Positions 59,792 to 61,338 of a DNA stretch of 64,000 nt are shown here, piece by piece. The stretch lies in the NCBI RefSeq assembly GCF_054482525.1, contig NZ_CM137006.1; one strand, given 5' to 3'. Under the pieces are notes generated by a model that had not been told where the DNA came from, made no database searches, and saw only the letters and a program-made list of their open reading frames with translations. Position 1 is the stretch's first letter, and every line of letters begins with the position of its first letter. Made by a program: the position numbers and the translations under genes.

Positions 59792-59880
59792 GCCGGATGC
59801 GATGCTGGCGCATCTTATCCGGCCTACGAATTGCACAATTTGTTGATGTTGTTGGGTTTTGTAGGCCGGATAAGGCGTTT
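59792..59880. repeat. REP elements; the distal REP is interrupted by the IS element and resumes at 61314
   Basis: gccggatgcgatgctggcgcatcttatccggcctac … gtaggccggataaggcgttt | IS | gtttacgccgcatccggc. Confidence 0.8.
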
Positions 59881-59912
59881 TGAACTGAACCCCAAAACCT
59901 GGACAGTTTCAG

Positions 59913-60635
59913 TTAACCGGCTTTTTGATGCTCAGTCCGGTATTCTACCGGACTGAGTCCCCCAAGACTGAGTTTTATTCTTTTTTGATTCCAGTAAGTT
60001 ATGTATTCGTTAACGGCATTTTCCAGCTCTTCTACATTTCTGTAGTCCCGGCGATAGTACATTTCTTCTTTCAGGTGACCAAAGAAGTTCTCCATTACCG
60101 CATTATCAAGGCAGTTGCCCTTGCGCGACATGCTCTGCACTAACCCTCTGTCCGCCAGGGCGGACTGATAACTTTTTATCCGGTAATGCCATCCTTGATC
60201 ACTGTGGAGCAGCGGTTTCTCCCCTTCAGCAAGGCTTTCCAGCCCCTTATTTAACATCCGCTTCACCAGCTCCTCTGTAGGCCTGCAGGCCGTTTCCCAC
60301 GCCACGATTTCCCCGTTAAACAAATCAAGTATCGGGGACAGGTACAGTTTTTGTCCGCCAGCCCTGAATTCGGTGATATCTGTCACCCATTTCTCACAGG
60401 GAGCTTCCGCTTTGAACTGCCGCTGAAGGATATTTTCTGCAGCGAGTCCCATATTTCCCCGGTAAGACCGGTATTTCTTCAGGCGCACAGGAGACTTCAG
60501 GCCGAGCTGTTGCATCAGTTTTCGCACCGTTTTGCCACTGAACTTAAGACCTCTTTTCTGAAGCTCACAATGGATCCGCCGGTACCCATAACATCCCCGG
60601 TGTTCATGGAAGATGGAGGCTATGAGCTGTTTCAC
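59913..60635 (-). CDS. insK: IS3-family transposase OrfB (DDE integrase core), IS150 InsK-like; N-terminus made by frameshift from orfA
   Basis: …HSDQGWHY…SRKGNCLDNAVMENFFGHLK… DDE motif; open frame continues upstream to about 60770 with no ATG, overlapping orfA in -1 frame. Confidence 0.85.
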   Translation of the reverse strand: MKQLIASIFHEHRGCYGYRRIHCELQKRGLKFSGKTVRKLMQQLGLKSPVRLKKYRSYRGNMGLAAENILQRQFKAEAPCEKWVTDITEFRAGGQKLYLSPILDLFNGEIVAWETACRPTEELVKRMLNKGLESLAEGEKPLLHSDQGWHYRIKSYQSALADRGLVQSMSRKGNCLDNAVMENFFGHLKEEMYYRRDYRNVEELENAVNEYITYWNQKRIKLSLGGLSPVEYRTEHQKAG

Positions 60636-60739
60636 ATCAGCATACTTGTCCTTAGCCTTCTGCAGTGACAGCTGGTAGTACAGCGTGCTTCTGGCCAGCC
60701 CTGCAGCCTTTAACAGGTCAGACTGGCAGTGTCCGCACC

Positions 60740-61261
60740 TCAGGCTCCGGATGACTTTCGTTTTTTCTCCAGCTCCTGGCGCTTTTTTTCCAGGAGATGC
60801 TCCTGCATGGCTTTCAGATATGCATTTTCTGCGCGAAGATAACGCAGCTCATTCTTCATCTCTTCCGGCGTCATGTTTGCCTCGTTTTCATGGGTATCAT
60901 CAGAACGGGTCATGCTTTTCTCCTTCCTGCGCCTGATAAAGGCCTCATTACCAGATTTGCGGTAGCCTTTTATCCAGTTTTTAACCGTGTTGTGGCTGGG
61001 AATGTTAAACCGGGCAGCTACCCGGGGTAGAGACTCAGAATGCCCGAGAGCATAAAGAACCACGCAAAGTTTATCTTCAGGAGAATAGCTACGCTTGTGT
61101 CTGCAATCCAGTGCCCGAGGACCGTGAAGAAGAAAAAGATTAATCCAGTGTGAGAGGCTGGTGTGAGAAAGTTGAAAGAGTTTTGCCGTAGAAATGATGC
61201 CTGCATGACCAGCCAGGTAGTGATTTACAGCGGCAAGTTTTACTTCAAATGAATGTTTCAT
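60740..61261 (-). CDS. insJ: IS3-family transposase OrfA (HTH), IS150 InsJ-like
   Basis: MKHSFEVKLAAVNHYLAGHAGIISTAKLFQLSHTSLSHWINLF… 173 aa. Confidence 0.88.
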   Translation of the reverse strand: MKHSFEVKLAAVNHYLAGHAGIISTAKLFQLSHTSLSHWINLFLLHGPRALDCRHKRSYSPEDKLCVVLYALGHSESLPRVAARFNIPSHNTVKNWIKGYRKSGNEAFIRRRKEKSMTRSDDTHENEANMTPEEMKNELRYLRAENAYLKAMQEHLLEKKRQELEKKRKSSGA

Positions 61262-61338
61262 AAACTGCACCTTCAGATGTCAGATTATGTCCAACATTTG
61301 GGGTGCAGTTCAGTTTACGCCGCATCCGGCACCTGTCT

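Follow-up and report, generated by a model that had tools for sequence, protein, structure and literature searches.

An insertion sequence assigned to IS1397 in the loop of a REP between cyuA and yhaL

The passages of PMC1525189 that deal with IS1397 describe its insertion into REPs, or palindromic units (PUs), as 'experimentally proved', citing Bachellier et al. 1997, Clement et al. 1999 and Wilde et al. 2001–2003, and the corresponding passages of PMC3184786 likewise present this REP specificity as experimentally shown. Transposases appear, according to the same part of PMC1525189, to determine the target specificity, and Wilde et al. 2003 is cited there for recognition of the PU target by the transposase; between 227 and 290 REPs have been counted per genome (PMC1525189). 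ISKpn1 of Klebsiella pneumoniae, also of the IS3 family, is portrayed in those passages as likewise PU-specific by experiment, with the specificity determined by the transposase, but as specific for K. pneumoniae-type PUs (PMC1525189), and its likeness to the element studied here is one of description. REP-specific insertion is also a property of IS621, an E. coli element of the IS110 family (PMC1525189, PMC3184786). IS621 differs in family and recombinase and inserts at a fixed sequence that lies beyond the inverted repeat, on the REP's 3′ side (PMC3184786), whereas IS1397 has a DDE (rve) transposase, inserts into the loop and generates 3–4 bp duplications.

Analysis of the window (the whole 64,000-nt stretch of DNA examined here) makes it almost certain that the two-REP BIME separating the convergent genes cyuA and yhaL received an intact IS1397, which entered the central loop of one REP by transposition and duplicated GTTT. 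The original prediction had noted an insertion sequence within a REP at this place, and the observation is correct; what it describes is a known element with a known target specificity, not a new one. This copy is like IS1397 in sequence, in its IS3-type orfA/orfB arrangement with a predicted −1 frameshift, in a duplication of the 3–4 bp kind and in its insertion into a PU loop. Nothing of substance is different: it is a further chromosomal copy, and only 8 of 5426 complete E. coli genomes have IS1397 at its site. Because insertion into REP loops is the habit of IS1397, its position between cyuA and yhaL is expected. The comparison, which covers thousands of complete genomes together with metagenome junctions, is a population-scale confirmation that nearly all IS1397 insertions are in REP loops, in both orientations and with 3–4 bp duplications.

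Boundaries, coding layout and identity of the element

The complete element is 1432 bp long and occupies positions 59881–61312, with its transposase on the minus strand, and it is 100% identical to full-length E. coli copies in RefSeq. An inverted-repeat search located the transposase-distal terminal repeat, IRR, at 59881–59905 (TGAACTGAACCCCAAAACCTGGACA) and the transposase-proximal repeat, IRL, at 61288–61312 (reverse complement TGAACTGCACCCCAAATGTTGGACA). The two 25-nt ends (TGAACTGAACCCCAAAACCTGGACA / TGTCCAACATTTGGGGTGCAGTTCA) are imperfect inverted repeats, complementary at 21 of 25 positions, with TG...CA tips, and directly outside them stands a 4-bp direct repeat, GTTT, at 59877–59880 and 61313–61316. 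The absence of terminal inverted or direct repeats had been named beforehand as grounds for giving up the insertion, and both kinds of repeat are present. The original prediction had placed the element at 59861–61335; its presence is borne out, and the coordinates give way to 59881–61312, the wider span being the IS plus both halves of the split REP. Length, ends and duplication match the published values for IS1397 (about 1.43 kb, 1432 bp; imperfect inverted repeats of about 25 bp; a 3–4 bp duplication). A window-wide repeat search found no second copy of the element in the window. The length of 1432 bp recurs at 18 of 20 other E. coli loci, the exceptions being copies of 1433 bp (L008) and 1427 bp (L040), both of them annotated 'frameshifted'.

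The coding layout was read from the list of open reading frames and from Pfam and NCBIfam searches. On the minus strand, orfA (60740–61261, ATG at 61261) encodes 173 aa with two HTH_28 domains, and the orfB frame (59913–60848) encodes HTH_21 followed by an rve/rve_2 DDE integrase core. A slippery heptamer in the orfA frame, A AAA AAG (60782–60788, minus strand), is the predicted site of a programmed −1 frameshift that joins orfA to orfB, and the transposase CDS of the genome PCN033 carries the PGAP label 'programmed frameshift'. The predicted OrfAB fusion (59913–61261, 449 aa) scores 387 bits against the NCBIfam model NF033516 (IS3 family transposase; cut-off 160) and matches HTH_28 twice, HTH_21, rve (2–102 of 102 model positions) and rve_2 in Pfam. 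The model score, the rve DDE core and the overlapping ORFs with the A AAA AAG −1 motif together place the element, as judged from its sequence, in the IS3 family. Within the last orfB codons lies a perfect palindrome (59931–59957) with a 12-bp stem and a 3-nt loop (CTCAGTCCGGTA ttc TACCGGACTGAG), which is followed by no T-run on either strand.

By analogy with the IS3-family members IS911, IS2, IS3 and IS150, the OrfAB transposase would be made by −1 ribosomal frameshifting at A AAA AAG and would move the element by a copy-out/paste-in route via a circular intermediate. In keeping with the literature, the transposase itself would recognize the PU target, and insertion into the loop of the second REP of the spacer (PU2, below) duplicated GTTT and split the REP hairpin while breaking no gene.

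The name IS1397 rests on the RefSeq/PGAP annotation of identical sequences as a proxy for the ISfinder reference: full-length E. coli copies with 100% identity are annotated 'IS3-like element IS1397 family transposase'. On this annotation we assign the element as an intact IS1397, an assignment under which its insertion into a REP is the published target specificity of IS1397. It had been called IS150-like in the original prediction. Within the IS3 family, ISfinder assigns IS1397 to the IS150 group, and the term holds as a loose description at group level.

An element that was IS150 itself, or an isoform of it, would have reached the REP by chance, and we regard this as extremely improbable. 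The two elements do share the IS3 layout, an OrfA of 173 aa, A AAA AAG at an equivalent position and similar inverted-repeat tips (TGAACTGCACCCC..GTTGGAC versus TGTACTGCACCC..GTTGGAC), but comparison with K-12 IS150 (InsJ/InsK) gave protein identities of 27% for OrfA and 51% for OrfB, a global DNA identity of about 50% and a length of 1432 versus 1443 bp. A word-11 blastn search of K-12-lineage genomes found no IS150 match to the element, the only match being a 65-bp remnant of IS1397. Chance is excluded by the REPs found beside 38 of 41 metagenome junctions, against a baseline of 2.4% (see below). Protein identity, DNA identity and blastn thus refute an IS150 isoform, and 'IS150-like' is acceptable only as a loose group label; the annotation should read IS1397. 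The K-12 copy of IS150 used in the comparison lies in the hokA/sokA locus and not in a REP. A search for further IS150 copies in REPs, which had been suggested as a follow-up, would pursue the wrong element.

The split REP and the empty site

The genes cyuA and yhaL both point into the spacer, and the gene order in PCN033 is tdcG, cyuP, cyuA (+), IS transposase (−), yhaL (−), yhaK (−), yhaJ (+). The IS lies 110 nt from the cyuA stop codon (59768–59770) and 26 nt from the yhaL stop codon (61339–61341), in agreement with the distances of about 110 bp and 30 bp in the original prediction, the flanking sequences of which are also right; its place between the two convergent stops confirms that it is intergenic and interrupts no gene. 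The REP nearest cyuA, PU1 (GTGCCGGATGCGATGCTGGCGCATCTTATCCGGCCTAC; 59790–59827), is intact; it was recognized from its sequence, inverted repeat and fold (−21.5 kcal/mol, z −5.0), and its orientation is inverse to that of PU2. Because of this second, inverse and intact unit, the spacer is a two-unit BIME. PU2, the REP nearest the 3′ end of yhaL, is split. Its left half, GTAGGCCGGATAAGGCGTTT, spans 59861–59880 and ends in the first copy of GTTT; on the other side of the IS, the second GTTT is followed by the right half (ACGCCGCATCCGGCAC; 61313–61332 including the GTTT copy), which was likewise recognized from sequence and inverted repeat.

Beyond the GTTT copies, the palindrome arms are GCCGGATAAGGCG and CGCCGCATCCGGC. 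Joining the flanks minus one GTTT yields GTAGGCCGGATAAGGCGTTTACGCCGCATCCGGCAC, which folds into a hairpin of −20.9 kcal/mol (z = −4.9 versus shuffles), and the duplication sits in the loop of GTAGGCCGGATAAGGCG-TTTA-CGCCGCATCCGGC. The target has the properties of a REP/PU: it folds as a GC-rich palindrome, is repeated in the genome, is extragenic and is paired with an inverse PU.

The empty site was rebuilt by removing the IS and one GTTT and keeping 400 bp on each side, and was compared with 5426 complete E. coli genomes, in 5387 of which it is found as one uninterrupted match. This 800-bp query has a median of 26 matching places per genome, its REP segment (query positions 381–415) matching elsewhere too. 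The comparison with K-12 that had been proposed at the outset revealed an intact REP at the empty site, which differs at one loop base (GTTTTCGCC). The restored hairpin and the empty sites bear out the claim that the IS lies inside a REP, and that its removal together with one direct repeat restores the REP.

Both kinds of repeat, IS and REP, often break or misjoin assemblies, and many metagenome contigs end at IS1397; the junctions could then be an assembly chimera, in which an IS was collapsed into a repeat-rich spacer. Such an artefact, which had also been named as something that would undo the prediction, is very remote. The 4-bp duplication is perfect and the inverted repeats are complete at both ends, and PCN033 and 19KM1776, complete genomes that were sequenced separately, are 100% identical to the window over 2236 bp spanning both junctions, which makes an assembly error unlikely; near-identical copies occur in other genomes. 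We therefore treat the junctions as those of a genuine insertion into PU2.

Target choice at other loci

A first sample comprised 15 copies at about 11 other loci (yaaX/yaaA, flgD/flgE, rcsC/rcsB, metJ/yiiX, avtA/ysaA, cysM/yfeS, pfkA/sbp, rsmS/mscK, rhlE/ybiA, ypfN/yphA and yjjV), all of them in REP loops and 13 of the 15 with a 3- or 4-bp duplication. The query that retrieved them carried REP flanks and was biased for orientation, and two unbiased samples were therefore added, one from an IS-only query and one from a metagenome scan for the IRL end. All five copies from the flank-free query lie in REP-type palindromes, including the GCCTGATAAGACGCG type, one of them in the opposite orientation. 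In total, all 20 of the other E. coli copies examined fall within REP-type palindromes, with arms of the GCCGGATAAGGCG and GCCTGATAAGACGCG types, and 17 of them are flanked by a direct repeat of 3 or 4 bp. The metagenome scan, with the 30-nt IRL end as query, returned 61 loci and 41 distinct usable junctions; a REP arm lies within 30 nt of 38 of the 41, compared with a baseline of 2.4% of window positions (binomial p ~1e-58). A recognizable REP arm is missing at the other three, so that the specificity, though strong, is not absolute.

Relative to the REP, all 15 copies of the first sample are oriented alike, a uniformity that results from the REP flanks in the query. The IS-only query gave 4:1 and the metagenome junctions 18 versus 15, with 5 ambiguous (p = 0.26–0.73), and a fixed orientation was accordingly rejected. 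The specificity of IS1397 for REPs, very strong though not absolute, does not depend on orientation.

In the first-sampled copies, the IS is always flanked by GCCGGATAAGGCG and, at its opposite end, CGCCGCATCCGGC, in one orientation, which could also reflect REP halves that travel as cargo of the mobile element and are not a split host target. We give this next to no credence. The empty site holds exactly one intact REP in 5387 genomes, and the flanks are not the same from copy to copy (arms of the Y type and the Z type, variant loops, different 3–4 bp repeats); these two observations refute it. Both orientations occur in the unbiased samples (18 versus 15, 5 ambiguous), and the uniform orientation of the first sample came from the flank-containing query. 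A host REP split by the incoming IS1397 is thus the reading that we retain.

One of the three metagenome junctions without a REP arm, on contig OHQM01005509.1 (L089), belongs to a full-length IS1397 with the direct repeat CTC, which sits in the loop of a GC-rich hairpin that is not a REP (agcccctCTCcggaggggct). This site hints that hairpin structure contributes to target choice. In EC556 and ETEC1748 (L009 and L010; avtA–IS–panM), IS1397 is found without a target duplication, panM is the neighbour instead of ysaA, and the right flank is a REP half in reverse sense (GTAAACGCCTTATCCGGCCTAC). Such an arrangement is what recombination between two copies of IS1397, with a resulting inversion or deletion, would leave behind.

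Recurrence in the spacer, neighbouring genes and distribution

The occupied genomes differ in where and how the cyuA–yhaL spacer is interrupted. PCN033 and 19KM1776 share the position in PU2 and the direct repeat GTTT with the window; HCP5S3_I2 also has PU2 and GTTT, but its IS carries 8 differences and its flanks are not the same. The insertion in UPEC69 is in PU2, shifted by 2 nt and flanked by TTAC, that in 2021CK-01784 is in PU2 with the direct repeat GTT, and 300444 carries IS1397 in the other REP, PU1, with TGGC. The spacer has received at least four independent insertions among the eight genomes, and this recurrence shows targeting. Since one BIME has been struck independently several times, finding the IS at a given locus is no reliable evidence of common descent. 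SCU-102 (L020) has the same insertion and an IS identical to that of the window, with the right GTTT reduced to T; the 3 bp missing from this junction were either lost in a small deletion or dropped through a sequencing error.

Copies with zero nucleotide differences from the element occur at independent sites (UPEC69; trmL/cysE), which suggests, as far as sequence identity can tell, recent activity of this variant. PCN033 and 19KM1776 have 6 IS1397 places each. A hot spot at cyuA/yhaL was considered and is not supported. At most about 5,800 IS1397 places, divided by a few hundred REPs per genome, correspond to roughly 10–25 per REP, and eight occupied genomes are not above this rough expectation.

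The insertion could be consequential or selected, with expression of cyuPA or yhaKL changed through the lost 3′ REP hairpin or through outward or antisense transcription, or with the spacer acting as a special hot spot. We consider this unlikely. The REP beside the yhaL stop is indeed split, only 26 nt from that stop, at least four independent insertions fell into one spacer, and the transposase is co-oriented with yhaL, so that read-through into the IS is possible. Outward transcription, in turn, could only be antisense because both neighbours converge on the IS, and a consensus scan of both strands found no sigma-70-like promoters or terminators in or at the IS ends. Further points against a consequence for the neighbours are the intact REP that cyuA retains (59790–59827) and a number of occupied genomes no higher than the per-REP expectation.

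The leader of the IS also argues against it. The first 52 nt on the transposase strand (61261–61312, minus strand) fold at −23.9 kcal/mol (z −5.2), and the RNA fold pairs the IRL tip (nt 1–11) with the Shine–Dalgarno region (nt 42–52) before the orfA ATG. A modelled yhaL read-through transcript forms the identical hairpin, which covers the ribosome-binding site and, we infer by analogy with other IS elements, would damp translation from external transcripts. If the insertion did act on its neighbours, the splitting of a REP located 26 nt beyond the yhaL stop might alter the stability of the yhaKL mRNA 3′ end, and sense yhaKL read-through into the IS could couple transposase expression to the yhaKL operon. 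Such a measurable regulatory effect is unlikely, and so is a second possibility, at which the L089 site hints, that IS1397 recognizes hairpin structure more than PU sequence. Transposition of IS1397 into a REP loop by its usual targeting remains the preferred reading.

When one genome per species was scanned with the 25-nt IRL tip, true IS1397 turned up in E. coli and otherwise in a single contig, a probable contaminant. This contig (L027), 415 bp long and labelled Microbacterium sp. 18062, matches the final 212 nt of IS1397 at 99.5% identity and continues into a REP arm of E. coli type; it is most likely E. coli contamination of a Microbacterium assembly. The exact 25-nt tip also occurs on other elements in Yersinia aldovae, Serratia nevei and Acholeplasmataceae/Bacteroidetes MAGs (L025, L028–L035). 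These elements otherwise have little or no DNA similarity to IS1397, with 85% over 78 nt in Serratia and the tip alone in the MAGs; they are probably IS3-family relatives whose end is conserved.

A 65-bp remnant of the IRR end, 95% identical to window positions 59881–59945, is present in about 1,800 complete E. coli genomes that lack a full IS1397, those of K-12 and B lineages among them. In E. coli FELIX_MS59, for example (L019:601–665, yhhJ/yhhI), the remnant abuts a REP half and ends beside the ISEc1-type transposase gene yhhI. Two metagenome contigs (L044 and L090) carry full-length copies without a direct repeat, which combine the left REP flank of this remnant with unrelated right flanks.
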